The notes: generated from the letters alone by a model not told the origin. A stretch of 64,000 nt of DNA from Eubacteriales bacterium (GCA_045656745.1 JAZORT010000023.1:28901-92900); one strand, 5' to 3'; counted from the stretch's first letter, positions 8,340 to 41,525 are shown. Translations and numbers: made by a program.

Positions 8340-8597
8340 CGCCTTGGGTGAAAAAGATGCAATACATGTGAATTTTCGAGAAAAAATGAAGGAATATTTG
8401 CGAAAACCGGTAAATTTCCTCAAAATTAATATATAAATGACGGGTGCGCGAGATGAAGTTTGGAATTTATATGAAAAACAATGGAACTTTTGCGGTTGAG
8501 AAGAAAGGTTGTGTTTTGTTAAAATATTATTAGCCGACAACGGCTTTTTGGACATTTTTTGTCAATAATGCTAAAAGCAATTAGGAAATTCAGTGAT

Positions 8598-14188: not shown

Positions 14189-14323
14189 ATGAAGAAAACA
14201 AAAATCGTCTACGAAAATGCAGAGCTTTGCATTTTGCAGTTTGGTCAGCAGGATGTAATAGCAACATCGACCCCGTATGAAGATGGCGGAGATATGGGCG
14301 ATTGGACTCCCGAAAGAAATTAA
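14189..14323 (+). CDS. Cassette 1 small peptide (44 aa) MKKTKIVYENAELCILQFGQQDVIATSTPYEDGGDMGDWTPERN
   Basis: AAAGGAG RBS at 14174-14180; leader homologous to the peptides at 28373 and 38473. Confidence 0.8.
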   Translation: MKKTKIVYENAELCILQFGQQDVIATSTPYEDGGDMGDWTPERN

Positions 14324-16383: not shown

Positions 16384-16392
16384 CAAAAAAAT

Positions 16393-26639: not shown

Positions 26640-28151
26640 TTAACCTTTTCTTTTTTTGATGTATTGCTTTGGCGAAACGCCGTAAAATTGCTTAAAGTTC
26701 TTTGAAAATACCGCAGGGTCAACAATTCCGCACTGCTCGGCTATCCTTGAAATGTTTGCATCCTCGCCGAGAATAAGAAGAAGCTCCTTTGCCTTTTTCA
26801 TTCTTATTGTGGTAAGGTACTTTTTCGGGGTCATTTGCGTAACCTCGAAGAACTTTGTTCTAACATAGTCCTTGGCGTAACCGCTGTCGCGAAGAAGCTT
26901 GATGATGCTAAGCTCGCTGTTGCTGTAATTTTTCTTCATCTCGTCTATCATCTTATAGATTACCGCGTTCGTGTCGCTCTTGGGGAAATCTATATTAAGA
27001 AGAACGAACCTTAAATAGGCGTTGCAGAGCGAGTTAAAATATTCCTCGTTGGTATATCTGTTGTAAAGAGTAAGCTCCGCAAGCTTTCTGCCCTCGCCGT
27101 AAACATTGTCGTGAAGAAGGGTAGGGGAGGTAAACCTTGAAAGCTGGTCGAAATCACCCGTTACAGATATAATGTTGTATTTGCCCTCGGAGGTTATTCG
27201 GTGGTTTACTGCGGGAGGAACAATGATAATCGAGCCTTCGTAAATAGAAAATTCGTCCTGCTCGGTAATGAACACCGCATCTCCCGACTGAACGAGCATA
27301 ATCTCGTAGAGCTTGTGGGTGTGGAAAATCTGTGTGCCGTGAAGCTGCACACCCTTTGAGGCACTCCAAAGAGCAGGGTCCATAGAGAGAAAGTCGTCAA
27401 ACTTTTTAAGCCTCATATCTACAAAGAAGTCTTTTTCCGAGGGAATTCCGCCCTCGAAATCATAAACGCGCATAAGCTCGCTCGGAATATGCAGGGGAGA
27501 GGACGTGTCCTTGTAGCTCTCGCGCAAGAGGGTGAATGAAATATCGTCAAGATACTGAATACCCTTAATTTTCGTTGCGTAATGTATCATAAGCGCTCTT
27601 GTGGGGAGCTCGGTCTTTGCATTTATCTTAACATCGCGGAAGATGCGATCGGATCCACCGTCCTCTAAAACAAAGAGCTTCAGCCTTGAGTCTATGCCGT
27701 CAGAGTCAAGGTAGTATTCCGCGCGCAGGGTGTACCAGCTGTCGGAGCAAAGCCGTATTGCCTCGCTCTCGGGCAGGTCGGAAGGAAATACCGAAATCGA
27801 CCTTGCCGAAAGGTTGTTCTCTCCCTCGCTGATGTTAAAGCGCAGAGAAAAGCAGGATGTTCCCGCATTGTTACAAAACTCAATCTTAAAATACTTCTTC
27901 GAGTAATTCCAAACCGGCTCAAAGCGGTAACGCATTTCAAAAACAAAGGCGGTGGGCGAGGAGGACGCCGCGTTGCCCGCAATATTCGTTGTACTGCTGA
28001 TATTATGGGTGGTATTAGCGGTGAAAATCTTTATAACCTTGTTGTTTTTGTCGGTCGGGTCGGTGTCCTGGTAAAACCTGGCACCGTAAAGTCCATTAAA
28101 ACTAGGTGTGAGATCTTCATCATTAGAGATAACTCTGGCGTTGATTTCCAT
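26640..28151 (-). CDS. Extended AraC regulator (503 aa): lectin-like N-terminal domain, cupin, HTH
   Basis: 'HTHKLYEIMLV' cupin and C-terminal AraC HTH. The N-terminal ~260 aa aligns by eye with a module of lipoprotein 31743..37364. Confidence 0.88.
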   Translation of the reverse strand: MEINARVISNDEDLTPSFNGLYGARFYQDTDPTDKNNKVIKIFTANTTHNISSTTNIAGNAASSSPTAFVFEMRYRFEPVWNYSKKYFKIEFCNNAGTSCFSLRFNISEGENNLSARSISVFPSDLPESEAIRLCSDSWYTLRAEYYLDSDGIDSRLKLFVLEDGGSDRIFRDVKINAKTELPTRALMIHYATKIKGIQYLDDISFTLLRESYKDTSSPLHIPSELMRVYDFEGGIPSEKDFFVDMRLKKFDDFLSMDPALWSASKGVQLHGTQIFHTHKLYEIMLVQSGDAVFITEQDEFSIYEGSIIIVPPAVNHRITSEGKYNIISVTGDFDQLSRFTSPTLLHDNVYGEGRKLAELTLYNRYTNEEYFNSLCNAYLRFVLLNIDFPKSDTNAVIYKMIDEMKKNYSNSELSIIKLLRDSGYAKDYVRTKFFEVTQMTPKKYLTTIRMKKAKELLLILGEDANISRIAEQCGIVDPAVFSKNFKQFYGVSPKQYIKKRKG

Positions 28152-28372: not shown

Positions 28373-28501
28373 ATGAAAAAAATCGAATACGTAAGCACAG
28401 AGTGCGAAGTTGTGCTTATCGAAACAAGTGACATTATCGCAACATCAAACGCACCCGGCTCCAGCGGCGGAAATATGGACGATTCCTGGGATGAAGGCTA
28501 A
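28373..28501 (+). CDS. Cassette 2 small peptide (42 aa) MKKIEYVSTECEVVLIETSDIIATSNAPGSSGGNMDDSWDEG
   Basis: Not in the ORF track. AAAGGAG RBS at 28361-28367; homologous leader; first gene of the operon. Confidence 0.82.
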   Translation: MKKIEYVSTECEVVLIETSDIIATSNAPGSSGGNMDDSWDEG

Positions 28502-28543
28502 AAAACAAAAAACAATACATAATTTTTGAAAGGAAAAGAAAAA

Positions 28544-30178
28544 ATGAAAAACACATTTACCAAAATCGCGCTTCTCGTTCTTTCTCTCGCTCTCCTTGCT
28601 TGCGTTCCCTTCGCAGTAAGTGCTGAGGAGACTTCGAACGAGGTTAAGATCCTTGCAAAGAACGTAATTTACGAGGATCAGATCAGATTAGTATTCGCAG
28701 TAGACGCAACCGTTGAGGAAGCTAACAACGTTAAGGTTGTTTACAAGTGGGGCGAGGATGGCGAAGTTAAGAACGCAGTTCTTCTCGATCCTACCGTTTC
28801 AGTCAACCTTTATAATGACCATCCTGCTTTCGCAATTGACGGCGTTCCCGCAAAGGAGCTTGCAGCTACCGTTTACGTAACTGCTTTTACCGGTGACGCT
28901 CCCGCAGACGATGCAGATTGGCTTACCTATTCCGCAGCAGAGTACTTCTATGCGAAGCTCTACAAGGACGGCTTTATTAACATGACCGAGGCAGACGGCG
29001 ATGACTATAACAGAAAGTGCCTCTACCAGACTCAGCTCGAGCTTGGTAAGTACGCACAGCTCGTTCTTAACTACAACGAAAATCAGCTTGCAACCGATTA
29101 TTCCTATATCTTCACCACTAACGAGAGCGTAAGCTTCGGCGGCAAGAGTACCGCTTTCGGCTACGGCGAGCTTAGCCTTACCGCAACCTCCGAGCTTGCT
29201 ATCTCGGGTTGGACTCTCACCGATATGAACGGAGAAGAAACCACTCTTGAAACCGCTATCCTCACTGCTAAAGGCGTTTATAGCGTAGAGCCTATCTTCG
29301 GCGGTCACGATTGCGCTGATGAAAATCCTGTAGACCACCTCTGTGATTCTTGCGGCGACCCTTTAAGCAGCTGTGCTACTAACGATAACAATCACCTCTG
29401 CGATCTTTGCGGCAAGGTAGCTTCCACTTGTGTTGACGCAGACAAGAACGGTCAGTGCGATGTTTGCTTTGTGTACAATTTCAACGTTGAAAGCATGGCG
29501 CAGTCCGAGCAGTTGAACATCTATAACGTTGCTTGGAACGGACAGGATACTACCGTAGAAGATAATTTCTCTTCTACCACGACTCTTACCACGTCTCAGA
29601 ACCGTCCCAGCGGCTTCGACAACGGCGAATGGTTCTGCCTTGCTGCCAATCCCACCGACGCTGCCGACACCGTTCTTAGATTCAATTCGATTTACAAGAA
29701 AGATAATACCGAGAAGTCCCACATAACCTTCGCTCCTAATGTTGAGGTTGAAAACGGCGACCTCGTTGTATTCGAGTTTGACTTCTACCATGTCAGCGGC
29801 GCTTCCTCAAAGAACCCCATTCGTTTCTACGATATTTATGCAGACGGTACGGCTTCTGCCGACTACACACCTACCTATACGAATGCGAATAACGTTGCAG
29901 TTTCCATAGGAACAACCAAACCTACGTTTGCTAAGGAAACTTGGGTAAGATACCGCCTCGTTTATAACAACTCTAACGATACTATTTATTGGTATTACAG
30001 CGTTGACGGCGGTGCAACCTATGCGTTTGCCGGCACAAACGCTTATAAGGCTGCAAGTGATATAGTTGCTGTCGGATTCAGAGGAAACAACGTATGGAAC
30101 GGCAACTCCACGCTTCTGTTCGACAACATTAAGTGTGTAAAGACTACCGCTGAGGCTTACGGTATCACCCTTAACTAA
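28544..30178 (+). CDS. Cassette 2 secreted protein: shared N-terminal domain, Cys/His-rich repeats, lectin-like module
   Basis: Sec signal ending VSA-EE; 'GVPAKEL...YSAAEYFYAKLY'; HLCDxCG repeats. Confidence 0.85.
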   Translation: MKNTFTKIALLVLSLALLACVPFAVSAEETSNEVKILAKNVIYEDQIRLVFAVDATVEEANNVKVVYKWGEDGEVKNAVLLDPTVSVNLYNDHPAFAIDGVPAKELAATVYVTAFTGDAPADDADWLTYSAAEYFYAKLYKDGFINMTEADGDDYNRKCLYQTQLELGKYAQLVLNYNENQLATDYSYIFTTNESVSFGGKSTAFGYGELSLTATSELAISGWTLTDMNGEETTLETAILTAKGVYSVEPIFGGHDCADENPVDHLCDSCGDPLSSCATNDNNHLCDLCGKVASTCVDADKNGQCDVCFVYNFNVESMAQSEQLNIYNVAWNGQDTTVEDNFSSTTTLTTSQNRPSGFDNGEWFCLAANPTDAADTVLRFNSIYKKDNTEKSHITFAPNVEVENGDLVVFEFDFYHVSGASSKNPIRFYDIYADGTASADYTPTYTNANNVAVSIGTTKPTFAKETWVRYRLVYNNSNDTIYWYYSVDGGATYAFAGTNAYKAASDIVAVGFRGNNVWNGNSTLLFDNIKCVKTTAEAYGITLN

Positions 30179-30231
30179 TATCAGTAAATAAGACTTAAAT
30201 TTATTAGGTTTTATCGATAAAATGTAACTTC

Positions 30232-30269
30232 ATCGCGGCTTTTCGGCAAAACCAAAAGCCGCGATTTTT
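30232..30269 (+). terminator. Intra-operon stem-loop or terminator after the cassette 2 secreted gene
   Basis: ATCGCGGCTTTT...AAAAGCCGCGATTTTT. Confidence 0.6.
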
Positions 30270-30426
30270 AACCAAAGACAGCCTTTCCAAAGTGAAAAGG
30301 CAACATCAACAGCTTGACGGATGCGGTGCTCGTTAGCCGAAAAAGCCCAAACGAAAGCCCCCGTCCCTTTGTGACAGTCTCCCCGAGGGAGGCTAGAGTC
30401 AGAAAGATAATAAGAGAATTAAAGAT

Positions 30427-31710
30427 ATGCATAATAAAAACATTTTGACAAAAGAAAGAATAGACTCTCTTCGAGAAATAAGAAACAAAAAGAGAGAAGA
30501 ATCCTTTGCTGCTCTCGTTCCCGCTATGGGCGAGGAAGCGGTGGAGGAGATAAGAAAAATCTACTCAATGTTTGACGAGAGAATGCTCGTTTGGATGGCA
30601 AACCTTTGGGAGCCTAACATTGGCGGATTTTATTATTCCAATTCCGCAAGAGACCACGAGGGCTTTCTTCCCGACCTTGAGTCCACCCATCAGGCGGTGA
30701 TCTTCATTACCGAGCAGTGCGGACTTGTCTCTAAGGATCAAATGCATATAACTGCAATCCCCGAGAGATTTGCTTCAAAAATGGCAGACTTTGCCTATGA
30801 TCTTCAGGACGAGGACGGCAGCTTCTATCACCCACAGTGGGGTAAAAACATAACCGCAACAAGAAAGGGCAGGGACGGTGCCGCGGCCTGGCGTCTTATC
30901 GAGCCTCTTGGCAGAAAGTGCAAGTATCTTCGCCTTTCACAGCGCCCGAAAAACGAGGAAACAAAGGCGGCATTGCCCGAATTCCTTGCCTCTACCGACA
31001 CACTTTTGGAATGGCTTGAGGGTCAGCGCATAGAAGAGCGCTCCTATCAGTTTGGTCATTATATAAACTCCACCTCAACAAACTTCTTTGTGGCGGGTCA
31101 GGAATACGTTGACACCCTGGTCGCTTGGCTTAACTCCAAAAACCGCGCGGATAACGGACTTTGGGAGCCGCAGGTTAACTACTCTTCGGTAAACGGACTT
31201 ATGAAGCTCAGCCTTTGCTACCCCGGCTTTGGCGCAAAGCTCCCCTATCCCGAAAAATCCTATGAGAGCGCAAGAGCCGCAGTGCTTTCCGATGAGCCTC
31301 TTACCTTTGCCTGCGAATATTACAACGCCTGGGCGGCTGTTAACAACTCCATAAAATCTATGGATGGCGAAATGGCAGAGGCCTACCGCGAAAAGCTCAA
31401 GCAGGATGCCCCCGAAATGATAAGAGTTACGGGCGAAAAAATGGCAAAGTGCAGAGTTGACGACGGAAGCTTTGCTTACTTTACCGCCGAGTCGGGAAAA
31501 GCCTGCCCTCGCTCGCAGGGTGCGCTTGTGGGCCTTGAAAATGTGAGAGAGGGAGACATAAACGGCAACGGTTGCTCGACCAGCGCCCCCTTGCGTCACC
31601 TTTTTGCGGCATTCGGTGTTGAAAAACCCACGATGTTTACCTCTGAGGATGCCGAGCTTATCTTCGAGCTTATGGACAATGCGGTCTCTCCTGTTAAAAA
31701 ACCGCTTTAA
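30427..31710 (+). CDS. Cassette 2 cytoplasmic unknown barrel enzyme
   Basis: GGFYYSNSARD, FLPDLEST, FYHPQWG, RKGRD, VNGLMK and EGDING motifs; no signal peptide. Confidence 0.85.
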   Translation: MHNKNILTKERIDSLREIRNKKREESFAALVPAMGEEAVEEIRKIYSMFDERMLVWMANLWEPNIGGFYYSNSARDHEGFLPDLESTHQAVIFITEQCGLVSKDQMHITAIPERFASKMADFAYDLQDEDGSFYHPQWGKNITATRKGRDGAAAWRLIEPLGRKCKYLRLSQRPKNEETKAALPEFLASTDTLLEWLEGQRIEERSYQFGHYINSTSTNFFVAGQEYVDTLVAWLNSKNRADNGLWEPQVNYSSVNGLMKLSLCYPGFGAKLPYPEKSYESARAAVLSDEPLTFACEYYNAWAAVNNSIKSMDGEMAEAYREKLKQDAPEMIRVTGEKMAKCRVDDGSFAYFTAESGKACPRSQGALVGLENVREGDINGNGCSTSAPLRHLFAAFGVEKPTMFTSEDAELIFELMDNAVSPVKKPL

Positions 31711-31742
31711 CATTCCTTTTTAAAATAAAAGCGAGGAAAATT

Positions 31743-34700
31743 ATGAAAAAAATTCTTTTACTTACACTTTCCCTCCTTCTTATTCTTGCGATGTGCGTTT
31801 CGTGCAACAAGAAGGACGGCGAAACAAAGCCCTCGGACGATACAAATGCTCCGAGCGGTGACAATACCGACACACCTCCGTCGGGCAGCCTTGTCTGGTC
31901 TGAAAATACAAGCACCTTGATATTGGTTAGCGACAGCGATAATTACGGAATTCTCGAGGTTTTGTCAACTCATGTTTACGAAACGTCCGGAAAAATACCC
32001 CAAGTCAAGGGTGAGGATGTGGATGGTAATTACGGCAGAATTATAGTTGGTGACAACGGCTCCGATATTGCGAAAAAGGCTTACAAAAAGCTTGACGATT
32101 ACGCAAATCTCCAGGGTCTTTTCGATTCAAAGAGAAGCGCATGGCTGATTTGGTCGGAAAACGGCACTATCGTTATTGCATACAGTGACCTTCTTGCTAA
32201 AAAGGACGCGATAGACTACATTGCCAAAAATTACACCACCGCGGCTTTCGGCCCCGGTAACGGCACTCTCTCAAAGGCAATATTTGATATTGAAGAATAT
32301 CTCACCGTCTTAAGGGAGACCGAGCAGGCTCCTTATATGCAGGAGCTTGGCGCAATTCTCGGCGCAGACGCTCTTGAAGCCTTTAAAAAGCTTTATTCTA
32401 TTTATGACGAGGACCTTTACGTTTGGCTTGCTAACCTTTGGTGTCCCGATAACGGCGGCTTCTATTATTCCGCCTCTGCGAGAAACAACGAGGGCTTCCT
32501 TCCCGACCTTGAATCTACCGGCCAGGCGCTGAAGATAATGGATAACGCAGGACTTTCGGTGGCTCTTGGCGGCAGCTGGCAGAAAATGCTTCCTAAGGAC
32601 ATTGCCGAAAAGCTGGTTAAGTTTGCATACGATATGCAGGCAGAGGACGGATATTTCTATCATCCCCAGTGGGGCACCGGAATTTCCACCACCAGAAGAG
32701 GCCGTGACGCAGGCTGGGCAAAAACCATTCTTTCGGGTCTTGGCGCAACGCCGAAATATCCTTACCTTAGCGGCATAACGACCCCCACCGCATCGCTCCA
32801 CCTTACCACCTCCCTCAAGGGAGGCTCCTCTGCGGAACTTGTTTCTAAGGTGATGCTAACTGCGGCAAGTAACTCAAAGTATGAATCCGAGGCAAGCTTT
32901 ATTGCCTACCTTGATTCGCTTAAATTTAACGAAAACTCCTATTCTGCGGGTAACGTAATAAACTCCACCACCTCCGAAATCAAGAAGGCGGGATATTGGC
33001 AGACTCTCAGAGATTATCTTACCGAGCATCAGAATCCCGAGAACGGTCTTTGGGAGGACGAGGTAACCTATCAGTCTGTTAACGGCTTAATGAAGCTTTG
33101 CACCTGCTTTGGCTCCTCTTATCCCAATGCTGAAAAGGCTCTCGAGTCGGCAATGCAGATACTTATGCGTCCTATTGACGACGAGCTTACGGGTATAACC
33201 TATGTTTACAACCCCTGGGTTGCTATTGCAAACCTTCTCCACGCGGTAAGCGACGAGACTGAGACTACCCTTCGTCAGATGCTTCGCGATAACGCAAAGG
33301 AAATATTCCTTATGACTGCCGAAAAGCTCTCTGCTTTTGCAAAGGATGACGGCGGCTTCTCCTACCTTAGAGATTATTCCTCTCCCTTCTCTCAGGACTC
33401 GCTCGTTGCAGTCAGCGGAAGCGTTGAGAGTGATGTAAATGCTACTACTATCGCTATCTCTACCGTTGTGCGTTATATGGAAGAGGTATTCGACCTTAAA
33501 TTCCCCCCTCTTTACTCAAGATACGAGGGAATCTATTTCGTAGATACCCTTACAAGCATGGGTACTATCATAAAGGACAGCCTTCTTGCCAAGGACCCCG
33601 AGGTTATCACCTTTGACGAATACGAAGATGATGACATTAAGGTCGACGCCAATGTTGTAACCAATCCTCACCCCGCTGTCGAAAACAGAATAGGTGATGC
33701 TGAGACCGACGGCAGCGAATATATCTGGTTTGAGGCAGCCCTTGTTCCCAACCCCAAAAAGGAGGCGGGCAACACCGACTATGTACTCTACGCGGGTGAT
33801 AAGACAAGACCCGAGGACAGCGGATACGATAAGCTTGTTGCAGAAACTGCAAGCTCTACCATATTTAACATTACCAACCTGGGCGCACCCGGAAACTGTT
33901 ACGTTTTCGAGGCAGATATGCTCTTCGGCGGCAGCGAAAGCAGCACAAGCCCCGTAGCTCAGCTTAACTTTGTAAGGGATACCGGCTCTGACCCCCTTAT
34001 CTCTGCTTGGGTAGACTTCTATCAGTACACGAGAGGTGGTCAGAATTACCTCAGAATTCAGGAATACTTCGCAGGTGCTGACGGCGTTAAGGATACCGAG
34101 GTCGTTGCGGGACTTCCCGTTGACGATTGGTTCAAGCTCCGCATCGAGATGTATAAGGATTACTCCGGCGAGGGCGGCGAGCTTAAAATAATGCTCAAAT
34201 TCTTCGTTAACGACAAGTTCGTAGGCATCTCCGACTCGGGTCACTACCAGAAGGGCGCATACAAGGACTTCCTTGTTAACGCAGTTAAGCTCTCTTATTA
34301 CAGACACGCAGCATCTTCCTTCTATCTTGACAACATCTATGTTGCAAAGAAGAATCTTACCTATGAGCTTGGTAAGTATGAGTCTGACGCGGTTGAAAGA
34401 CCCGTTAGCGACAAGAAGGTTTATGACTTTAATGACGGACTTATTCCCAACGGTCCCGACATCTGGACCGAGATGTACTACCGTAACGAGGACGGCGAGC
34501 AGGTTATGATGAACGCTGCCGATTGGACCAACGACCTTGATTCTCAGTTCGGCGGCTCCAAGGGTCCCGGCGCAAAGGTTTATATTGCAGACGACCCCGA
34601 GAGCGCGGCAAATAAGGTGCTTCGCGCATATTCCTTCAACACCAAGACCTCTTCCTATAAGGCAACAATGCATGTTGACGGAATGTTAACGAAGGAGGGA

Positions 34701-37364
34701 GCCGACACTTGGGAGGTAGAGTTTGACTACTACTTTGACAAGATCTCTTGGATCTACTCCAAAAACTTCTTCACCCTCGCATTCTGTAACGAAAACGGCA
34801 GTACGATGACTGCTATTAACTTCAACGGACTTAACTGGGACGATTCTCACAATACCGAGGTTCTCGGCATTGCTCTTAGTGACGGAACTACTCTTGAAAA
34901 CTTCGTTATTTACGATGCAACCTGGTACACCTTCAAGGTGGTTTATCACCACAACGAGACCAATCCCGCCGAGTCTATGCTTCTTATCTACGTTCTCGGT
35001 ACCGACGGATACCAGTGTATCGCAAATACCGCGGTAAGCAGTAAGTTCGGCGCAGTAAGCGGTGTTGACCTTGTGTTCCAGTGCTATGACATCAGAGGAA
35101 CTCAGTATATCGACGACCTTTCGGTTTCTATAACCGATACCGCCTACGTTTACGATAAGCCTATCGAGGGCGAGATAGAAATTCCCGTTCCCGAGGATAA
35201 CAAGATCTACGTTGAAGGCTCTCAGAGAGGAAACGGCGTATATTATGAAAATGCCGAAAGATATACCGCGGCGTCTCACGCCGAGCTTATCAAAAACGGC
35301 ATTATGGCAAAAAACACAAAGCGCGGCGACGGTATTGGCGACGGCAACCGTGAGCTTGAATTCGTTAATGTTGACGGCGGTTACGCCCTCTCTTACACAT
35401 CCACCGGCAGCGGCAACCACGCGCTCAACTTTGTATCAAAGGCTCCCGCAATAGACGGCTTCGTCTTCGAAACCGACATAAAGCTTTCGGGCGTTGATAC
35501 CGAGGAGGGCAGAGACATTCGCTTTACGGGTACTGCGACCAACGGTACTGCTGACTCGGGTCTCTACGCCTTCAACCTTAAATTCCATAAGAACCCCAAT
35601 GACAGAAGCGGCGGTTACATCGTTACTATACAGAACAACGAGCAGAAGGTCGTTATAAAGGACGACGTATGGGTAAACGTTCGCCTCGTTGCAGAGGGAA
35701 CAAAGGAAAACTCTCCTCTCAAGCTTTATATCAACGGCACGATGGTTGTTGAAAGCACTCTTAACGCAGATATTTCTACCATAAAGGGCGTTGAGCTTTA
35801 CACTCCTTCGACCTACAACGGCCACGGCTGGGAGCAGGGTACCGTTTACCTTGATAACACCTATGTTTCGGGTACCGGCGTTTACGTTCCTCCTCCCACC
35901 TTTACCGAGGAATCGAGAGGCGAGGGTAAGAACGCAGGAAGCGCAATCACCTATGAGGGAACAACCTATGACGACCTTGTCAATGGCGGTTATATGGCAA
36001 AGAACACCTCAAGAGGCGACGGAATTGAGGCAGGCAACAGAACACTTGAGCTTAAAGATGTTGACGGCGGTAATGCACTCGTTTATTCGGCTCTTGCCAG
36101 CGGAAACCACTCAATAAACTTCAAGAATGAAAACGATCCTCACTACGGCTTCCTCTTCGAAACCGACATTAAGCTTAACGGTATTAACAACTCGGACTCC
36201 AGAAAAGTAACCTTTGTGGGAACTAACTCAAACGGCACAAATAATGCAGGACTTTGGGGCGTTAACATCGGCTTCTATAAGAATACCGAGACCGAGGACG
36301 GCGGTTATATTGTAACCGTTGGCGGTGCTGAGGACGATTGGAAGGGCATTATCGCGGAGGATACCTGGGTAAATATCCGCTTTGAGTCCACCTCTCTTGC
36401 ACAGGACGGCGCATTCAGCTTCTACATCAACGGTGAAAAGGTTTGCGACGGCGCCCTTACCTCGGCTATCACCTCAATTAAGGGTATCGAGCTTTATACT
36501 CCTTCAACCTCGGGCGGCGAGGGCTTTGTCAGCGGTTCGATAAGCCTTGATAACACCTATGTTACCGGTACAAACGCGCCCGTAGAAGAGATTACCTCCA
36601 CCTCCAGAGGCGAGGGTCTGGGCGTTGATAAGGCTATAAGCTATGACGGCACAACCTACGATGAGCTTCTTGCAGGCGGTAGAATTCTCGAAAACACTTA
36701 TAGAAAAGACGGTGTTTTGGATGGACACAGAACTCTTTCTCTTGTAGATGTTGACGGCAACACAGCTCTCAAGTATTCTTCTATCGGCAGCGGCAACCAC
36801 GCAATCGACTTTGACATTGACGGCAAGGTTGAAGAGGGTCTTGTCTTTGAGACCGATATAATGCTCGAGGGAATTGACGCAAGCTTTGAAAGACCGATCA
36901 CCTTCTACGGCACATCCAACGGCGGCAGCGGAAACGTTGACGTTTGGAGCTTTGCTATCAAGCTTTGCGCTAACCCCGTAAAGACCCAGGGCGGTACATA
37001 TCTTCAGATTGCGGGAAGCTCTTTCCATATAGTTATTCCCGATAACACCTGGATAAACCTCCGCGTTGAGTTCAAGGGAACAAAGATGGGCGACAGATTT
37101 GATATCTATATTAACGGCGAATATGTTGATATGGGACATCTGTCCGGCTCTATCTCGGCAATGACCGCAGTTGAGCTTTACACCCAGTCCACCCTTAATG
37201 GCAATCAGGGTATGGAAAACGGCTCTATCTATCTCGATAACACCTATATCTACGGTATCGAGGCAGAAGGACAGCCCGAAAATCCCACGCCCGACACTCC
37301 TAATCCCGAGCAGGGAACAGGCTCCAGCAGCGGCAATTTGGACGGCGAGGGCTGGGAAGACTAA
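31743..37364 (+). CDS. Cassette 2 giant lipoprotein (1873 aa): barrel enzyme domain, five beta-rich modules, acidic Trp tail
   Basis: Lipobox CVSC, conserved barrel motifs, three ~230-aa C-terminal repeats, ends GSSSGNLDGEGWED. Confidence 0.88.
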   Translation: MKKILLLTLSLLLILAMCVSCNKKDGETKPSDDTNAPSGDNTDTPPSGSLVWSENTSTLILVSDSDNYGILEVLSTHVYETSGKIPQVKGEDVDGNYGRIIVGDNGSDIAKKAYKKLDDYANLQGLFDSKRSAWLIWSENGTIVIAYSDLLAKKDAIDYIAKNYTTAAFGPGNGTLSKAIFDIEEYLTVLRETEQAPYMQELGAILGADALEAFKKLYSIYDEDLYVWLANLWCPDNGGFYYSASARNNEGFLPDLESTGQALKIMDNAGLSVALGGSWQKMLPKDIAEKLVKFAYDMQAEDGYFYHPQWGTGISTTRRGRDAGWAKTILSGLGATPKYPYLSGITTPTASLHLTTSLKGGSSAELVSKVMLTAASNSKYESEASFIAYLDSLKFNENSYSAGNVINSTTSEIKKAGYWQTLRDYLTEHQNPENGLWEDEVTYQSVNGLMKLCTCFGSSYPNAEKALESAMQILMRPIDDELTGITYVYNPWVAIANLLHAVSDETETTLRQMLRDNAKEIFLMTAEKLSAFAKDDGGFSYLRDYSSPFSQDSLVAVSGSVESDVNATTIAISTVVRYMEEVFDLKFPPLYSRYEGIYFVDTLTSMGTIIKDSLLAKDPEVITFDEYEDDDIKVDANVVTNPHPAVENRIGDAETDGSEYIWFEAALVPNPKKEAGNTDYVLYAGDKTRPEDSGYDKLVAETASSTIFNITNLGAPGNCYVFEADMLFGGSESSTSPVAQLNFVRDTGSDPLISAWVDFYQYTRGGQNYLRIQEYFAGADGVKDTEVVAGLPVDDWFKLRIEMYKDYSGEGGELKIMLKFFVNDKFVGISDSGHYQKGAYKDFLVNAVKLSYYRHAASSFYLDNIYVAKKNLTYELGKYESDAVERPVSDKKVYDFNDGLIPNGPDIWTEMYYRNEDGEQVMMNAADWTNDLDSQFGGSKGPGAKVYIADDPESAANKVLRAYSFNTKTSSYKATMHVDGMLTKEGADTWEVEFDYYFDKISWIYSKNFFTLAFCNENGSTMTAINFNGLNWDDSHNTEVLGIALSDGTTLENFVIYDATWYTFKVVYHHNETNPAESMLLIYVLGTDGYQCIANTAVSSKFGAVSGVDLVFQCYDIRGTQYIDDLSVSITDTAYVYDKPIEGEIEIPVPEDNKIYVEGSQRGNGVYYENAERYTAASHAELIKNGIMAKNTKRGDGIGDGNRELEFVNVDGGYALSYTSTGSGNHALNFVSKAPAIDGFVFETDIKLSGVDTEEGRDIRFTGTATNGTADSGLYAFNLKFHKNPNDRSGGYIVTIQNNEQKVVIKDDVWVNVRLVAEGTKENSPLKLYINGTMVVESTLNADISTIKGVELYTPSTYNGHGWEQGTVYLDNTYVSGTGVYVPPPTFTEESRGEGKNAGSAITYEGTTYDDLVNGGYMAKNTSRGDGIEAGNRTLELKDVDGGNALVYSALASGNHSINFKNENDPHYGFLFETDIKLNGINNSDSRKVTFVGTNSNGTNNAGLWGVNIGFYKNTETEDGGYIVTVGGAEDDWKGIIAEDTWVNIRFESTSLAQDGAFSFYINGEKVCDGALTSAITSIKGIELYTPSTSGGEGFVSGSISLDNTYVTGTNAPVEEITSTSRGEGLGVDKAISYDGTTYDELLAGGRILENTYRKDGVLDGHRTLSLVDVDGNTALKYSSIGSGNHAIDFDIDGKVEEGLVFETDIMLEGIDASFERPITFYGTSNGGSGNVDVWSFAIKLCANPVKTQGGTYLQIAGSSFHIVIPDNTWINLRVEFKGTKMGDRFDIYINGEYVDMGHLSGSISAMTAVELYTQSTLNGNQGMENGSIYLDNTYIYGIEAEGQPENPTPDTPNPEQGTGSSSGNLDGEGWED

Positions 37365-37402
37365 CCCTTAAAAAAACAAAAAAACGCCTTCGGGCAAAAA
37401 GG

Positions 37403-37430
37403 GCGAGGATACCGTTTTGCGGTATCCTCG
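37403..37430. terminator. Probable bidirectional terminator
   Basis: CGAGGATACCG-TTTTG-CGGTATCCTCG between convergent genes. Confidence 0.6.
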
Positions 37431-37437
37431 TCTGTCA

Positions 37438-38310
37438 TTATATGTTTTTTTGAAGCCTTTTTTCCCTTGATACACCCGTCATTTTTGCGCGGTATTCGGA
37501 GGGAGATGTGCCGTATTGCTTCTTAAAGGAGCGGTTAAAGTAGGAAATGTTGTTAAATCCGCACTCCAGTGCAATTTCTATTATTCTTTCGTCTGTTTTT
37601 ATCAGCATTTCCTCCGCGCGAATGAGCTTTTGCCTTTGGTTATACTCGGCGTAGCTCATACCAACCTCCTGCTTGAAAAGACGGCCGATATATTTTTCGT
37701 TTTTTTGATAGGTTTTTGCAAATTCGGCAAGAGAGGTCTCGGTTTGGTAAAGCTCGTCGGCGTGGCGCTTCATAAGATAAACCAGCCAGTGCATCTCGTG
37801 CTTTGGCTTAGGCGCGTTTTTGTCAAGATATAAAAGATAGTCCTTAACGAGCTCCCCAATCCTAAAAAGCTCCTCGGGGGTGTCGATATGTTCGCAGTTT
37901 TCAAGCTCCGAGATAAGCATTTTTTCGTCAGCGCCTGAGCGGGAGCAGGTCCTTTTTATAATTTCGACCGATTTTTCCTTGTCTATAACCGCGTTGCCGA
38001 CATAAATAACCGCGCAAACACCTCCGTTTGTTAAAACGGGGACGGCAATCTCAAAAATGCCGTAAATGCAGTGACCGCAAAAGGGCTCCTTTTCCGAAAC
38101 CGCCTTGGCGTTGGCAAAGGTCTTGCATTTTAGGCAGGGTCTGCCCTTTGATGCCGATTTTGCTATGGCGCAGTATTTTTTCGTATGCACGATGTTATCC
38201 AATTCAAGCTTTGTATAAGGGCTGTCGGTAATTCCCGAAAGGTCAAGGACACTAATGTGGATATTGCGCCCCCTTGTCAGCTCGTCAATCAAAAATTGAA
38301 GTGTTTGCAT
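37438..38310 (-). CDS. AraC regulator with PocR-like sensory domain
   Basis: 'YCAIAKS...CLKC...CIYGIFEIAVPV...VIYVG' is PocR-like; C-terminal AraC HTH; divergent from cassette 3. Confidence 0.88.
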   Translation of the reverse strand: MQTLQFLIDELTRGRNIHISVLDLSGITDSPYTKLELDNIVHTKKYCAIAKSASKGRPCLKCKTFANAKAVSEKEPFCGHCIYGIFEIAVPVLTNGGVCAVIYVGNAVIDKEKSVEIIKRTCSRSGADEKMLISELENCEHIDTPEELFRIGELVKDYLLYLDKNAPKPKHEMHWLVYLMKRHADELYQTETSLAEFAKTYQKNEKYIGRLFKQEVGMSYAEYNQRQKLIRAEEMLIKTDERIIEIALECGFNNISYFNRSFKKQYGTSPSEYRAKMTGVSREKRLQKNI

Positions 38311-38472
38311 AAAACCCTCGAAACCTTTTTTAGTATATTATAACATAAAAGTATCCTTTGTGCAAGTATTTTGTGTCTTTTGTGTTAGATAAAGTTTTTT
38401 ATGAGTGATAAAATTATAATGTAAGCTATTTTTAATCAAAATCAACACCCTATGAAAGGAGAATTTCACGAA

Positions 38473-38613
38473 ATGAAAGAAAAAATAAGCTACACCGAAG
38501 CGCTTATCGAAGTTGTAAGCCTTGAAATTTCGGACATCGTAACCTCCTCGTCAAATTCGGGCGGCAGCTGGGGCGGCTCGGGCGGCAACATAGACCCGGA
38601 CGGCTGGGTTTAA
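38473..38613 (+). CDS. Cassette 3 small peptide (46 aa) MKEKISYTEALIEVVSLEISDIVTSSSNSGGSWGGSGGNIDPDGWV
   Basis: Not in the ORF track. AAAGGAG RBS at 38455-38461; homologous leader; first gene of the operon. Confidence 0.82.
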   Translation: MKEKISYTEALIEVVSLEISDIVTSSSNSGGSWGGSGGNIDPDGWV

Positions 38614-38653
38614 AGCAAAACAACCAAATTTTAAAACTTGAAAGGGTAAAAAA

Positions 38654-40120
38654 ATGAAAAAAACAAGACTTATTATTTTCGCATTTACACTTGCCTTGCT
38701 CGTGTCCGCATTCGTTGGATTCAGCGCAAGCGCAGAGGAGGACGGCGCGCTTGAAATCAAGTCGTTGAACCTCGTTTATAATGACAAGGTTGAGCTTCTC
38801 GTTGCTATTGATATTGATAACTCTCAGAGAGATAACGTTGAGGTTACTTACACCCTCGGCGGTGAGAGCTACGAGGCAATGCTTCATCCCACCGAAACCT
38901 ACACGAATGACGGCGTTACATATCCCGTATTCTACACTGTGGGTATAGCTCCCAAGGATATTGACTCGGTTATGACCTTTGAAGCGCACATCAAGGGCAG
39001 CGGAGCAAAGGGCGAGGCATACTCGGCTTCTATTCTCGACTACCTTTACGCAAGACTTTATAAAAACGGCTATATAGATATGACCGAGGGCGATGACCTC
39101 AAGAGAAAAGAGCTTTACATTAACACGATAAACTACGCCTCCAGCGCAAAGGACGTTCTCGTTAACGTTGGGGAGGGCAAAGAGGAGCCTCTCTTCACCG
39201 ACTATCTCTTCGCTTGGTCGAATGATGACGGCTTCAAGGTTGCAGCCGACCGCTTCTTCGGTGCTTTTACTCCCGGCAGCGAGATAACCCCCGTTTTCGT
39301 TGGCGAAGGCTCCGTTTCCGAGTGGAACCTCTTTAATGCAGAGGGCGTGTCTCTCGGCACTGCTGAGCTCGGCTCCGCCGTAGCGCTTAACTGCCACACC
39401 GAGTTTTCTAAAGCCGTGCTCGAGGACAGCGTTACCGTAATGGATTATGAAAACGGCGCATCTAATGCTTTTGTATCCTCCGTTGACGCAAGCGGCAACC
39501 CCGTAAGCGGTGCTTATGCAAGCGGCTCTTCGCTTGCGATGGGTCTTACTACTAAAGGTGACAACACCTATCTCCAGGTTCGTAACCCTGCAAACAGCGG
39601 TAAGACCGGCGTAACTACCGTAAATCTTTCCAACACTATTCAGACAGGTAACTGCTACACCTTCGAGACCAAGATCAATATAGAAGGCGCAACCGGCGGC
39701 AACAACTTCGCTCAGCTCGTGTTCGTTAACAACAACGGCGGTGAGGCTGTAAATCTTTATCTGAAGGCTACAAATAATGCGAACGGAAAGGCTAACTTTG
39801 CTGTTGCAACCACCGGCACAAACTCTAACTTCACCGCGGGTACCGTTCTCTTCGACTATAACGACAAGTCTATCGGCACTACCACCTGGTTCACTCTTCG
39901 CGTTGAGTTCTACTTTGAAGGCGCGGGCGATGCTACTGCGGAGAACACCTACATGAAGCTCTACGTTGACGATATTCTCGCATACGACGGTCTTGCGCAC
40001 TGGGCGCTTGGCGCAAACATCAACCGCGTTGAGATAAGACACGTCTCCGCAGGTAAGACTCACAACACCTGCTACGATGACATCTTCTTCACCAGAACAA
40101 ACAAGGCATACACAGAATAA
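38654..40120 (+). CDS. Cassette 3 secreted protein: shared N-terminal domain plus lectin-like module
   Basis: Sec signal ending ASA-EE; 'YPVFYTVGIAPK...SILDYLYARLYKNGY'. Confidence 0.85.
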   Translation: MKKTRLIIFAFTLALLVSAFVGFSASAEEDGALEIKSLNLVYNDKVELLVAIDIDNSQRDNVEVTYTLGGESYEAMLHPTETYTNDGVTYPVFYTVGIAPKDIDSVMTFEAHIKGSGAKGEAYSASILDYLYARLYKNGYIDMTEGDDLKRKELYINTINYASSAKDVLVNVGEGKEEPLFTDYLFAWSNDDGFKVAADRFFGAFTPGSEITPVFVGEGSVSEWNLFNAEGVSLGTAELGSAVALNCHTEFSKAVLEDSVTVMDYENGASNAFVSSVDASGNPVSGAYASGSSLAMGLTTKGDNTYLQVRNPANSGKTGVTTVNLSNTIQTGNCYTFETKINIEGATGGNNFAQLVFVNNNGGEAVNLYLKATNNANGKANFAVATTGTNSNFTAGTVLFDYNDKSIGTTTWFTLRVEFYFEGAGDATAENTYMKLYVDDILAYDGLAHWALGANINRVEIRHVSAGKTHNTCYDDIFFTRTNKAYTE

Positions 40121-40132
40121 ATAAAAACTGCT

Positions 40133-40168
40133 TCGTGGCTTTCGCTCATTGGTGAAAGCCACGATTTT
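40133..40168 (+). terminator. Intra-operon stem-loop after the cassette 3 secreted gene
   Basis: TCGTGGCTTTCGC...GTGAAAGCCACGATTTT. Confidence 0.6.
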
Positions 40169-40187
40169 GAAAACAAAGGTTTACAAA

Positions 40188-41525
40188 ATGAAAACCAGAG
40201 AAGAAATACTGACAAAAGAGCGGCTTGATTTTGTAAAAGAAAAAAGAGAGGCTATTCGTGAGAAAGCCTTCCTAGCCGCAGAAGAAAAAATAGGCAAAGA
40301 GGGCGCATGTGCCCTAAAGGAGCTTTATTCCTCCTTTGATGAAAAAATATATATTTGGTTTTCGGGGCTTTGGGATAAGGACATAGGCGCGTTCTATTAT
40401 TCCGAGTCGGCAAAAGACACCTCTCCCTATCTTCCCGATATAGAAAGCACTGTGCAAATCCTCCGCTTTCTTAACAACTCGGGTATGATTGCCAAAGGCG
40501 AGGGAAGCTACCTTAACAGAATACCCGCTGCGGTGCGCGAGGGAATAGTGAATTTTGCTCTTTCGCTCCAGGACCCAGACGGCTTCTTTTATCACCCACA
40601 ATGGGGCAAGAATATCTCTCCCTCAAGGCGGGGCAGGGACCTTTCCTGGGCAAAAAACACCCTTGCCGATGCGGGCGTTCAGCCGAAATATATGCTCCCC
40701 ACCGCAAAGACCGCGGACGGAAAACGCTCGGAGCATCTTCCCGATTACCTAAAGGATATAAGCCTTTTTAAGGAATATCTTGAAAAATTCGACATTCGTG
40801 AAAATTCCTATTACATAGGAAACATTATAGAGTCAACAATGTCGCTTATCAGCGCTGCGGGCGAGGAATATACTTCCTATCTTGCCGAGTGGCTCAACCG
40901 CAACAACCGCGCGGATAACGGACTTTGGGAGGAAGAGATAAAATATTCCTCGGTTAACGGACTTATGAAGCTTTCGGGCAATTACCCTGCCTTAAAGACG
41001 GGACTTCCTCACGCAGAGGCATCTCTTCGCAGCGCATTTTTTGCCGCTATGAGTGACGAGAGAATGAAGTTCGTTTGCGAGGTCTATAACCCCTGGGCAA
41101 CCATAGGCAATATCTTCCGCGCAAACAAGGACACCCCCGACAAGGCGGTGCTTGACAGTATGAGAGCAGAGCTTATCGAAAGCGCCCCCCGTCTTATTGA
41201 AAAAACCAAAGAAAAGATAGGCGTTTTCGGAAAGGGTGACGGCTCGTACTCCTATTTTAAACGCATGTCAAGCTCTATTTCTCAGGGCGCTCCCGTTGCG
41301 ATCCCCGGCACAAACGAGGGTGACGTAAATGCAACCACAATATGTGTCGGCTCTACGGCAAGGTGTATATGCGCGGCATTCGGTTTGCCGATGATACCCA
41401 TTTTCGCTCCCGAGGACGGAGAGCTGTTCTTCGAGCTTTTGGAGAACGCCCCCGCCGTAGTAAAAAAGCGCAGTCTTGATGTTTTTCCCGAAAAGCTTTC
41501 CGATAAGGAAGAGCTTGGTGAATAA
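40188..41525 (+). CDS. Cassette 3 cytoplasmic unknown barrel enzyme
   Basis: GAFYYSESAKD, YLPDIEST, FYHPQWG, RRGRD, VNGLMK, YNPW and EGDVNAT motifs. Confidence 0.85.
   Translation: MKTREEILTKERLDFVKEKREAIREKAFLAAEEKIGKEGACALKELYSSFDEKIYIWFSGLWDKDIGAFYYSESAKDTSPYLPDIESTVQILRFLNNSGMIAKGEGSYLNRIPAAVREGIVNFALSLQDPDGFFYHPQWGKNISPSRRGRDLSWAKNTLADAGVQPKYMLPTAKTADGKRSEHLPDYLKDISLFKEYLEKFDIRENSYYIGNIIESTMSLISAAGEEYTSYLAEWLNRNNRADNGLWEEEIKYSSVNGLMKLSGNYPALKTGLPHAEASLRSAFFAAMSDERMKFVCEVYNPWATIGNIFRANKDTPDKAVLDSMRAELIESAPRLIEKTKEKIGVFGKGDGSYSYFKRMSSSISQGAPVAIPGTNEGDVNATTICVGSTARCICAAFGLPMIPIFAPEDGELFFELLENAPAVVKKRSLDVFPEKLSDKEELGE

Follow-up and report, generated by a model that had tools for sequence, protein, structure and literature searches.

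Small peptides with a putative leader and with tails predicted to dock a neighbouring lectin-like surface protein

Organisation of the locus

In this study, we explored three tiny genes in a 64,000-nucleotide stretch of DNA (the window) from an Eubacteriales bacterium (GCA_045656745.1 JAZORT010000023.1:28901-92900), which lies on contig C23 of a genome that is 60% complete, using profile searches, comparative genomics and structure prediction. The genes encode peptides of 42 to 46 residues (PEP1 to PEP3) and sit in three cassettes (A to C), together with a signal-peptide protein carrying a domain that we term SN plus lectin-like LG domains, a cytoplasmic protein with an alpha/alpha barrel (BAR), a giant lipoprotein combining BAR and LG domains, and an AraC-family regulator (Table 1). 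Pfam and NCBIfam returned 0 families for all 9 cassette proteins tested. PDB sequence profiles gave nothing for PEP and SN and one chance-level match for BAR, while the ESM Atlas returned only unnamed clusters.

Table 1. Features of the three cassettes, in coordinates of the window.
Position	Strand	Feature	Description
8559..10022	+	BAR protein, cassette A	Cytoplasmic, alpha/alpha barrel; start codon uncertain
10026..14138	+	Lipoprotein, cassette A	1370 aa; BAR plus 3 LG domains; last ~13 residues (about 14097-14135) resemble the PEP1 tail, including the residues after Trp
14189..14323	+	PEP1	44 aa; leader-like N-half, residues 1-27, through the invariant Thr-Ser; acidic/Gly-rich tail with Trp near the end
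14350..16383	+	SN-LG protein, partner of PEP1	677 aa; signal peptide, SN domain, two lectin-like LG domains
16435..17250	-	AraC-family regulator	Cupin + HTH; beside cassette A
26640..28151	-	AraC-family regulator	N-terminal LG-like domain; divergent from PEP2
28373..28501	+	PEP2	42 aa; leader-like residues 1-25, tail 26-42
28544..30178	+	SN-LG protein, partner of PEP2	544 aa
30427..31710	+	BAR protein, cassette B	427 aa; cytoplasmic; modelled at pLDDT 88.5
31743..37364	+	Lipoprotein, cassette B	1873 aa; BAR plus 5 LG domains; C-terminal ~13 residues (about 37323-37361) resemble the PEP2 tail
37438..38310	-	AraC-family regulator	PocR sensory domain; divergent from PEP3
38473..38613	+	PEP3	46 aa; leader-like residues 1-26, tail 27-46; residues 39-41 and 43-46 form the predicted interface with the next gene's product
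38654..40120	+	SN-LG protein, partner of PEP3	488 aa; predicted SN domain about residues 33-175 (beta-sandwich plus two helices); LG domain 256-485 (concanavalin-like)
40149..41525	+	BAR protein, cassette C	Cytoplasmic
41547..45680	+	Lipoprotein, cassette C	1377 aa; BAR plus 3 LG domains; no Trp tail

A conserved peptide family

The observation from which we started holds: the original prediction described three tiny peptides, two of them absent from an ORF track, with a shared leader-like motif and no maturation enzymes nearby, and all three ORFs are present where it had placed them. Each is preceded by an AAAGGAG-type RBS, 8 nt before the ATG for PEP1, 6 nt for PEP2 and about 11 nt for PEP3, and the translations align without gaps over the common motif, with a Tyr-to-Asp spacing of 14 in all three (Y8/D22, Y6/D20 and Y7/D21). 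However, three was an undercount. An HMM of the three peptides, searched against all 37,204 stop-to-stop segments of the genome, found 19 further members, and after iteration the set was stable at 22, each with E <= 2e-10, a similarity far beyond chance. In the 22-row alignment D22, S27 and W39 are invariant, while Y8 and T26 are at least 90% conserved. Each peptide consists of a conserved N-half followed by a variable, acidic and Gly-rich tail ending in Trp.

The family extends well beyond this genome, with 59 homologues in a word-indexed library and 4,329 representative clusters at E <= 1e-3 in a whole-library search, nearly all of the best 150 being 37-92 aa long; none carries a source name or a Pfam/NCBIfam match. 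A search for longer, fused forms returned one 92-aa protein and no fusion, although this is weak evidence. Literature searches by keyword and with leader hexapeptides, which did not reach subscription journals and supplements, found no description of the peptide family. For the 3 orthologue pairs that could be compared, dN/dS is 0.16-0.24. The position of the genes immediately upstream of SN genes, their strong RBSs and the absence of any terminator-like site between PEP and SN in a promoter and terminator scan, whose counts were no higher than in shuffled sequence, could suggest upstream ORFs that act by being translated, the peptide itself having no function. We consider this very unlikely, since conservation at the amino-acid level spans 22 paralogues and thousands of clusters, with invariant Asp, Ser and Trp and the dN/dS values given above, and since in several genomes the peptide gene lies after the SN gene, or next to the enzymes described below instead.

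Association of the peptides with the SN domain

An SN-domain gene is the next gene downstream for 18 of the 22 PEPs in this genome, and next or next-but-one for 20 of 22. In loci of other MAGs, 33 of 34 distinct PEPs have an SN domain starting within 700 nt downstream, and in distant families SN domains also flank PEP-like genes. Co-folding of the mature SN-LG protein of cassette C with PEP3 placed the C-terminal tail in a conserved groove of the SN domain, with ipSAE of 0.80, 0.80 and 0.81 against 0.00 for the best of 3 controls, a mark that was reached by 58 of 80 solved complexes and 2 of 110 mismatched pairs in calibration. The runs agree in at least 65% of contacts. It should be noted that the co-fold used our own unpaired alignments and that the partner's own fold is uncertain, with a pLDDT of 43-44. 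The predicted interface comprises PEP residues of the conserved tail (Table 1) and SN residues including N39, A51 and Y130, which are 3 of the 5 near-invariant SN columns. We additionally observed charge-matched co-variation at the predicted contact: SN position 133 is acidic in 21 of 28 pairs with one residue after Trp and in 0 of 13 where the tail continues with D/E, while position 137 is K/R in 11 of 13 against 9 of 28. Since related genomes are not independent, these counts, as well as the co-occurrence counts below, overstate the case.

In the model of the SN-LG protein of cassette C, residues 256-485 adopt a predicted concanavalin-like jelly-roll fold, with a VIA-align Z of 15.7 and an rmsd of 3.2 over 190 residues to 6yp6_A, many further lectins and lyases among the matches and a Foldseek E of 9e-8, although the model pLDDT in this part is only 50-80. 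Both fold searches of the full SN-LG model were filled by this lectin-like domain, which is not evidence of a new fold for SN.

The same tail at the end of giant lipoproteins

In this genome, 11 proteins of at least 1,300 aa end in a tail of the peptide type. Of 17 PEPs with a lipoprotein partner, 11 partners have a Trp tail, while 6 of the 17 cassettes have a lipoprotein without it. Cognate tails score 38.0 against 26.4 for non-cognate ones, which 0 of 20,000 permutations reach, and the cognate tail ranks first in 6 of 11. This similarity could, however, come from gene conversion between neighbouring genes, since all 5 lipoproteins lying within 100 nt of a PEP have the tail, against 6 of the 12 lying farther away.

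The original prediction had also suggested processing of the peptides by the barrel enzymes, for which we found no support. The BAR model is an alpha/alpha toroid with only weak matches to terpene cyclases, prenyltransferase beta subunits and GH76/GH15, and the barrel also occurs extracellularly in the lipoproteins. For the same reasons we rejected a ComX-like prenylated Trp pheromone. A streptide-like Lys-Trp crosslink was rejected because the tails lack Lys and the only SPASM maturases found are a SCIFF maturase and one other, and sortase or CTERM sorting signals because the tail has no hydrophobic segment.

A candidate maturation cluster encoded in trans

The absence of maturation genes from the cassettes was confirmed, since the PqqD and SPASM matches of the genome are on contigs C45, C10 and C27 and not on C23. 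The original prediction had named RRE, transglutaminase and S26 peptidase genes as the ones to look for elsewhere in the genome, and for the RRE and the S26 peptidase this was right. Contig C45 holds an orphan cluster of four genes, encoding an HprK-like protein, a PqqD protein (RRE; PF05402, 4e-15), an S26-like peptidase and an NTP_transf_5 protein (7e-39); PF05402 is present in 5 of 5 genomes of the genus. The HprK-like and S26-like labels rest on weak scores, the latter including a weak match to NCBIfam TIGR02228. In the S26-like family a G-x-S-M-x-P motif, a His and a Gly-Asp are invariant, and its only PDB sequence matches are signal peptidases, with E of 0.008-0.17. Our literature searches, within the limits given above, found no description of this four-gene cluster.

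In other families of the order the same set lies directly beside peptides of this family. The same four genes follow a PEP-like gene in two of these genomes (G057 and G044), SN, PEP and the enzymes are contiguous in 4 further genomes, and 4 of 12 PEP-centred 16-kb loci hold the set, in genomes of about 2 Mb. The HprK-like gene occurs in 22 of 24 PEP-positive genomes against 25 of 126 PEP-negative genomes of the order. However, of the 2 PEP-positive genomes lacking an HprK-like match one is 100% complete, and the 25 PEP-negative carriers indicate that the cluster may have other substrates or that our profile may miss divergent peptides. Most enzyme clusters have no peptide beside them, with 3 of 20 HprK-centred loci having one. 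The peptide carries no export signal, and the cluster in this genome has no adjacent exporter, the nearby ABC genes being separated from it by a gap whose translation looks tRNA-like, whereas an ABC exporter lies within the cluster of G057.

The N-half resembles Firmicutes lasso leaders (PMC7533575, Table 3) in its Y-x-x-[PA]-x-[LIV] motif, in which the Pro position is Ala or Pro and a hydrophobic residue follows two positions later, and in a Thr two residues before the putative cut, while the spacing from Tyr to the putative cut is 3-4 residues longer than in the lasso leaders of that paper. PqqD, HprK-like and nucleotidyltransferase genes also accompany Firmicutes lasso clusters (PMC7533575). 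The lasso comparison made in the original prediction holds for the look of the leader only, and that these are lasso precursors is highly improbable. For the Asn-synthetase-like cyclase, PF00733 gave only short partial matches (30 bits or less) in this genome, which is incomplete, and in G044 (97% complete), while the full-length genes in the three other genomes searched, G057, G037 and G165, lie far from the PEP and enzyme loci. The transglutaminase-like B2 leader protease (Transglut_core3, PF13471) matched in 1 of 5 genomes, G057, about 700 kb from the cluster. Neither of the two clusters viewed, in G057 and G044, contains a cyclase.

Two further peptide classes did not fit. A C39 peptidase domain transporter (PF03412), as used for double-glycine leaders, was found in 0 of 5 genomes of the genus, three of them at least 93% complete, and the leader has no Gly-Gly. 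A SCIFF maturase exists on C10 (TIGR03974, 752 bits), but the PEP cores lack the six-Cys pattern and no PEP lies beside the maturase.

Discussion

We propose a model in which the peptides are two-part, RRE-dependent precursors matured in trans, to which we assign a probability of roughly one half. In this view, the N-half is a leader that would be bound by the stand-alone PqqD-type RiPP recognition element encoded elsewhere, at C45:30119-32815, and removed by the S26/SipW-like Ser-His peptidase of the same cluster, probably after the invariant Thr-Ser. The HprK/PEPCK-like P-loop protein and the NTP_transf_5 protein may modify the peptide further, before an ABC exporter would carry it out. The C-half, an acidic, Gly-rich tail ending N-x-D-x-x-G-W-x, would be the functional part and is predicted to lie in the SN groove of the secreted lectin-like protein encoded by the next gene. 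With a matching tail built into the C-terminus of the cassette's membrane-anchored lipoprotein, SN would therefore act as a tail receptor that can hold either the lipoprotein end or the free peptide, which would assemble or regulate a cell-surface glycan-processing complex under an AraC-type regulator. The family, its conservation, the gene order, the tail co-variation and the presence and distribution of the enzyme cluster are shown by sequence, whereas the docking of the tail to SN is predicted by a model, and RRE binding, the cleavage site, modification, export and the physiological role are inferred only. As the evidence is entirely computational, nothing in it shows translation, cleavage or binding directly.

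The interpretation given in the original prediction is thus partly supported: processing in trans is supported by comparative genomics, and a structural role for the next gene's product is supported in changed form, since co-folding docks the C-terminal tail and not the leader strand into the N-terminal domain of that protein.

Alternatively, the peptide could be an unprocessed small subunit or adaptor of the SN-LG protein, binding SN through its tail while the N-half has some other structural or chaperone role and the PqqD cluster has other substrates. The tight gene adjacency, the co-fold, the many enzyme clusters without a peptide and the 25 PEP-negative genomes with the HprK-like gene are in agreement with this reading. 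We nevertheless consider it unlikely, since SN-LG has a cleavable signal peptide and the peptide has none, so that the two would sit in different compartments unless the peptide is exported, and since the N-half is the most conserved part, yet makes no confident contact with SN-LG. The enzyme sets beside PEP-like genes and the co-occurrence with the HprK-like gene also speak against it. Somewhat less likely still are precursors of a conventional secreted antimicrobial or signalling RiPP made by the PqqD cluster, with proximity to SN genes reflecting co-regulation or immunity and not docking. The variable cores on a conserved leader, the association with the RRE cluster, the exporter in the G057 cluster and one PEP-like gene next to an ORF that, judged by eye, looks like a response regulator fit this view. 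However, twenty-two precursors paired with paralogous SN genes is not what an antimicrobial needs, the tail motif is also hard-wired on lipoprotein C-termini and co-varies by cassette, and the co-fold and the charge-matched co-variation point to SN binding.

A more far-reaching and doubtful reading is a new kind of surface-assembly system, in which the short linear C-terminal tail acts as a mini-dockerin read by a previously undescribed receptor domain, and in which the cell makes the ligand in two forms, one hard-wired on giant lipoproteins and the other a free peptide from a cyclase-less, RRE-dependent, RiPP-type pathway acting in trans on dozens of dispersed precursors. The matured and possibly phosphorylated or glycosylated peptide would anchor, cap or release the SN-LG proteins, which would give RiPP chemistry a structural or regulatory role in polysaccharide-degrading complexes of gut Clostridia.

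Clusters recognised only by an RRE are among the commonest predicted biosynthetic loci in rumen and gut Clostridia and have no known products, being counted as the second most frequent BGC type in a genome-mining survey of rumen isolates, in which we found no precursor or product named (PMC13289728). The cluster described here would be called in that way, and we propose for one such cluster a candidate precursor family, counted in thousands of sequence clusters, and a concrete partner for its product. If the docking of the tail to SN is real, RiPP-type processing extends from antibiotics and signals to the assembly or control of glycan-degrading surface machinery, and a new short-motif docking pair, usable as a protein-assembly tool, would be defined. 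The cassettes make up roughly a tenth of the crude ORFs of this genome and contain three domains with no family assignment, so that the finding opens a substantial unannotated part of uncultured gut Clostridia to experiment.

Comparison with known systems

Among RRE (PqqD)-dependent pathways, the closest are Firmicutes lasso clusters of the paeninodin and pseudomycoidin type with an HPr-kinase homologue and a nucleotidyltransferase (PMC7533575). Shared are a short precursor with what looks like a Tyr-x-x-Pro/Ala-x-Leu-type leader motif and a Thr near the putative cut, a stand-alone PqqD protein encoded together with HprK-like P-loop and NTP_transf_5 proteins, and, in one cluster, an ABC exporter. 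In contrast, the S26/SipW-like peptidase would take the place of a leader peptidase here, and the precursors are dispersed in 22 copies away from the enzymes, each paired with a secreted protein gene.

In the cohesin-dockerin assembly of cell-surface glycan-degrading complexes in Clostridia, a module at the C-terminus of large extracellular carbohydrate-active proteins is held by a receptor domain of another secreted protein, as is proposed here, and specificity appears to vary from pair to pair. The predicted ligand here is a linear tail of 10-15 residues and not a ~70-residue Ca-binding dockerin, SN is a predicted beta-sandwich with two helices and no Pfam match, a free peptide version of the ligand is encoded separately, and Pfam found no dockerin or cohesin in the peptides, the SN-LG proteins or the cassette proteins tested.

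With SipW-type (ER/archaeal-type) signal peptidases, which have dedicated substrates, the S26-like protein shares the conserved Ser motif, His and Asp. It has no N-terminal membrane segment before the putative catalytic Ser, so the domain is probably cytoplasmic, and all scores are below curated cut-offs. The residues before the proposed cut are small (Ala/Thr-Thr-Ser), as the -3/-1 rule would want.

The peptide family

The three ORFs are where the original prediction had placed them, each behind an AAAGGAG-type ribosome-binding site, and their translations fit the gap-free motif that it had proposed, with 14 residues from Tyr to Asp in each, so that the observation itself held. For the third peptide (PEP3), an in-frame ATG lies 21 nt upstream of the annotated start, but no ribosome-binding site precedes it, and the start at 38473 is preferred. 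An HMM built from the three peptides was run against all 37,204 stop-to-stop segments of the source genome (G000; 1.75 Mb, 46 contigs, 60% complete) and returned 19 further members, with iteration giving a stable set of 22, each at E <= 2e-10. Within this genome the window is C23:28901-92900. Sister species of the genus have only 0–6 matches to these peptides (PEP). In the alignment of the 22, Asp22, Ser27 and Trp39 are invariant (numbered on the first peptide, PEP1), while Tyr8 and Thr26 are at least 90% conserved. The family consists of two parts, an N-half with a Lys-rich start followed by Y-E-x-[AP]-x-[LIV]-E-[IV]-[IVL]-x-[FL]-x3-D-[VI]-[IV]-x-T-S, and a variable tail of 15–25 residues, which is rich in Asp, Glu, Gly, Ser and Asn and usually ends N-x-D-x-x-G-W plus one to five residues.

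A search of a word-indexed library gave 59 homologues of 38–92 aa, all of them unnamed and without a Pfam domain, whose sequences keep both halves. A filter-free profile search of 1.84 billion representatives gave 4,329 clusters at E <= 1e-3, and of the 150 best all but one are 37–92 aa. A search for longer, fused forms found only one 92-aa protein, which is weak evidence. Three orthologue pairs from other MAGs gave dN/dS of 0.24, 0.16 and 0.24, although from small counts, and translation is inferred from conservation only. Pfam, NCBIfam, PDB sequence profiles and the ESM Atlas gave no name for the family. Full-text literature searches likewise found no description of the peptide family or of the four-gene enzyme cluster considered below, although prior description cannot be excluded, since subscription journals and supplementary files lay outside these searches. 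A 2026 survey of rumen isolates counts clusters recognised only by an RRE as its second most frequent class (PMC13289728), and these may include this set.

Genomic surroundings

From a crude gene call and three domain profiles of our own making, a repeated cassette became visible, consisting of a cytoplasmic protein of ~430 aa (BAR), a lipoprotein of 1,300–2,600 aa with the same BAR domain plus 2–6 LG domains (LIPO), the peptide, and a signal-peptide protein of 450–690 aa with an N-terminal SN domain and one or two LG domains (SN-LG). The genome holds 51 BAR proteins, 22 SN proteins and 42 LG proteins, and in all 135 of 1,394 crude ORFs fall in one BLAST-connected component, an unusually large paralogous expansion for a genome of about 2 Mb. 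Long antisense ORFs of 577 and 552 aa overlap SN-LG genes and look like shadow ORFs, one of which misled our greedy gene calling.

BAR models as an alpha/alpha barrel (pLDDT 88.5), for which the only Foldseek matches are weak (E about 1e-2), to terpene cyclases, prenyltransferase beta subunits, GH76 and GH15. LG is a concanavalin-like jelly roll (VIA Z 15.7; Foldseek E 9e-8), while SN models as a beta-sandwich plus two helices at pLDDT 80–96. The window also carries three AraC-type regulators beside the cassettes, together with GH1, GH2, GH20, GH77 and a GDSL esterase, and the setting is therefore glycan use. One of these regulators has an N-terminal LG-like domain in front of its AraC_binding and HTH domains, so that a cytoplasmic regulator shares a domain with the secreted cassette proteins. 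The GH1 glycosidase is the first of two tandem ORFs, both of 448 aa. Related contigs are recorded as uncultured Clostridia and Oscillospiraceae from ruminant guts.

Association of the peptides with SN and predicted docking

An SN gene is the next gene downstream for 18 of the 22 PEPs in this genome and next or next-but-one for 20. The two exceptions are a tandem PEP pair on contig C37, which lies downstream of a 1,038-aa signal-peptide protein, has no SN gene after it and comprises the only PEPs in this genome without an SN partner. In 67 loci of other MAGs, found through the BAR protein, there are 34 distinct PEPs, all on the BAR strand with strong ribosome-binding sites, and 33 of them are followed within 700 nt by an SN domain. 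In more distant families of the order, PEP-like genes again lie beside large secreted proteins, several of which have SN-like domains either just before or just after the peptide gene. As judged by eye, a PEP-like gene in other families is also followed by an ORF that looks like an OmpR-type response regulator (locus L129) or by proteins that look like SLH cell-wall anchors with Gly-rich linkers (loci L121 and L127).

We co-folded mature SN-LG (residues 28–488 of the product of the gene starting at 38654) with PEP3, each supplied as an alignment of paralogues. The ipSAE was 0.80, 0.80 and 0.81, while all three controls, two unrelated partners and one unrelated protein in place of SN-LG, scored 0.00. 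In the calibration of the method this mark was reached by 58 of 80 solved complexes and 2 of 110 mismatched pairs, counts which hold only roughly with our own alignments. Runs agree in at least 65% of contacts, with a partner pLDDT of 43–44. Confident contacts involve PEP residues 39–41 and 43–46, that is, the conserved tail, and SN residues 37–43, 49, 51, 81, 83, 85, 130, 133–134, 137–138, 151 and 154, which include three of the five near-invariant SN columns, whereas the leader half makes no confident contact. We additionally compared 52 PEP/SN pairs at SN position 133, which touches the residue after Trp in the model. This position is acidic in 21 of 28 pairs whose tail ends one residue after Trp and in 0 of 13 whose tail continues with Asp or Glu, while position 137 is Lys or Arg in 11 of 13 against 9 of 28. 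This fits the predicted interface, but since the pairs are related by descent it is not an independent test.

A similar tail on the lipoproteins

A crude filter for Trp in the last eight residues and at least 60% D/E/G/N/S/P/T in the last 30 picked 14 of 2,315 segments of at least 150 aa, of which eleven are proteins of at least 1,300 aa. The tail is not confined to the giant lipoproteins, since a short Cys/His-rich protein of 337 aa on contig C20 also ends in the PEP-like tail motif. We examined 21 PEPs, leaving out PEP3 because the nearest-gene rule assigned it the lipoprotein of cassette B. Of these, 17 have a same-strand LIPO within 12 kb, and 11 of those LIPOs carry the tail. Cognate PEP/LIPO tails are more alike than non-cognate ones, with a mean local score of 38.0 against 26.4, which 0 of 20,000 permutations reached, and the cognate tail ranks first in 6 of 11. 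In the window, cassettes A and B show this even in the residues after Trp, while the lipoprotein of cassette C has no tail. Either a shared receptor or gene conversion could produce this pattern.

Candidate maturation genes in trans

No C39 peptidase was found in five genomes of the genus. The radical SAM/SPASM protein on contig C10 is a SCIFF-type thioether maturase (TIGR03974, 752 bits) with an N-terminal weak PqqD-like stretch, and is accounted for as the ordinary clostridial SCIFF system, unrelated to the peptides. A stand-alone PqqD protein, in contrast, is present in all five genomes. In G000 its gene lies on contig C45, in the order of a 255-aa protein with weak HprK-related matches, PqqD (4e-15), a 160-aa protein with a weak signal-peptidase match and NTP_transf_5 (7e-39). 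No small precursor-like ORF lies beside this cluster, and the gap between the ABC-2 transporter genes and the HprK-like gene gives translations that look like tRNA genes read through. Profiles of 12 homologues each sharpened the two weak labels. The kinase-like family has an invariant P-loop and its best PDB match is PEP carboxykinase (E 8e-4), with HprK only at E about 0.8, while the peptidase-like family keeps G-x-S-M-x-P, a His and Gly-Asp invariant and its only four PDB matches are signal peptidases (E 0.008–0.17).

The link between PEP and these enzymes comes from other genomes. The PEP profile matched in 24 of 150 other genomes of the order, often over the leader half only, and twelve PEP-centred loci from them were inspected. 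In the genomes G057 and G044 the PEP-like gene is followed directly by HprK-like, PqqD (3e-17 and 1e-14), S26-like and NTP_transf_5 genes, and G057 also has an ABC exporter within the cluster. In four further genomes (G100, G154, G037 and G165) the SN genes, PEP and the enzymes are contiguous. In all, 4 of 12 PEP-centred loci of about 16 kb hold the set, in genomes of about 2 Mb. Conversely, among 20 HprK-centred loci only 3 hold a PEP, and in the genus of G000 the cluster is always alone. In the 150-genome sample, the HprK-like gene occurs in 22 of 24 PEP-positive genomes and in 25 of 126 PEP-negative ones, the two misses being G099 (75% complete) and G159. The SN profile matched 12 genomes, ten of which are HprK-positive, while the other two matches cover only the signal-peptide end.

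The leader resembles the Firmicutes lasso leaders printed in Table 3 of PMC7533575, and the same paper notes HPr-kinase, PqqD and nucleotidyltransferase genes in such clusters. However, G000 and G044 (97% complete) have no full-length Asn-synthase-like gene, and where such genes exist they are remote from the PEP and enzyme loci. The B2 protease family was found in 1 of 5 genomes, far from the cluster. We therefore do not read the peptides as lasso precursors.

Proposed reading

Taken together, the peptides are best read as RRE-dependent, RiPP-type precursors, whose enzymes would act in trans and whose released core would be a ligand for the SN domain encoded next door, with the lipoprotein tails as a built-in copy of that ligand. 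The interpretation in the original prediction, which had offered processing in trans among its alternatives, is in this view partly supported. While the family, its conservation, the gene order and the distribution of the enzyme cluster are read directly from sequence, docking of the tail is predicted by a model, and recognition by the RRE, cleavage and export are inferred, export being unexplained in this genome. The cut after Thr-Ser is inferred from the invariant small residues at that point and from the signal-peptidase-like enzyme, whereas phosphorylation or further decoration is suggested only by analogy with the lasso accessory enzymes. Within the complex, the free peptide might act as an anchor, cap or competitor.

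Positions of features in the window, in other contigs of the source genome (G000) and in loci of other families
Location	Strand	Feature
window 14653-16386	-	antisense ORF (577 aa) overlapping an SN-LG gene
window 18316-19662	+	GH1 glycosidase, first of two tandem ORFs
window 19722-21068	+	second of the two tandem ORFs
window 26640-28151	-	AraC-family regulator with N-terminal LG-like domain
window 38452-38472		stretch with in-frame ATG upstream of PEP3
window 38504-40162	-	antisense ORF (552 aa) overlapping an SN-LG gene
G000:C10:23382-24761	-	SCIFF-type maturase
G000:C20		337-aa Cys/His-rich ORF with PEP-like tail
G000:C37:19459-19708	-	tandem PEP pair
G000:C45:29530-30119 (locus L116, 7530-8119)		gap between ABC-2 transporter genes and HprK-like gene
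G000:C45:30119-32815		HprK-like, PqqD, S26-like and NTP_transf_5 cluster
L129 8036-9072		PEP-like gene followed by ORF resembling an OmpR-type response regulator
L121 8024-9135		PEP-like gene followed by protein resembling an SLH cell-wall anchor
L127 7140-8185		PEP-like gene followed by protein resembling an SLH cell-wall anchor
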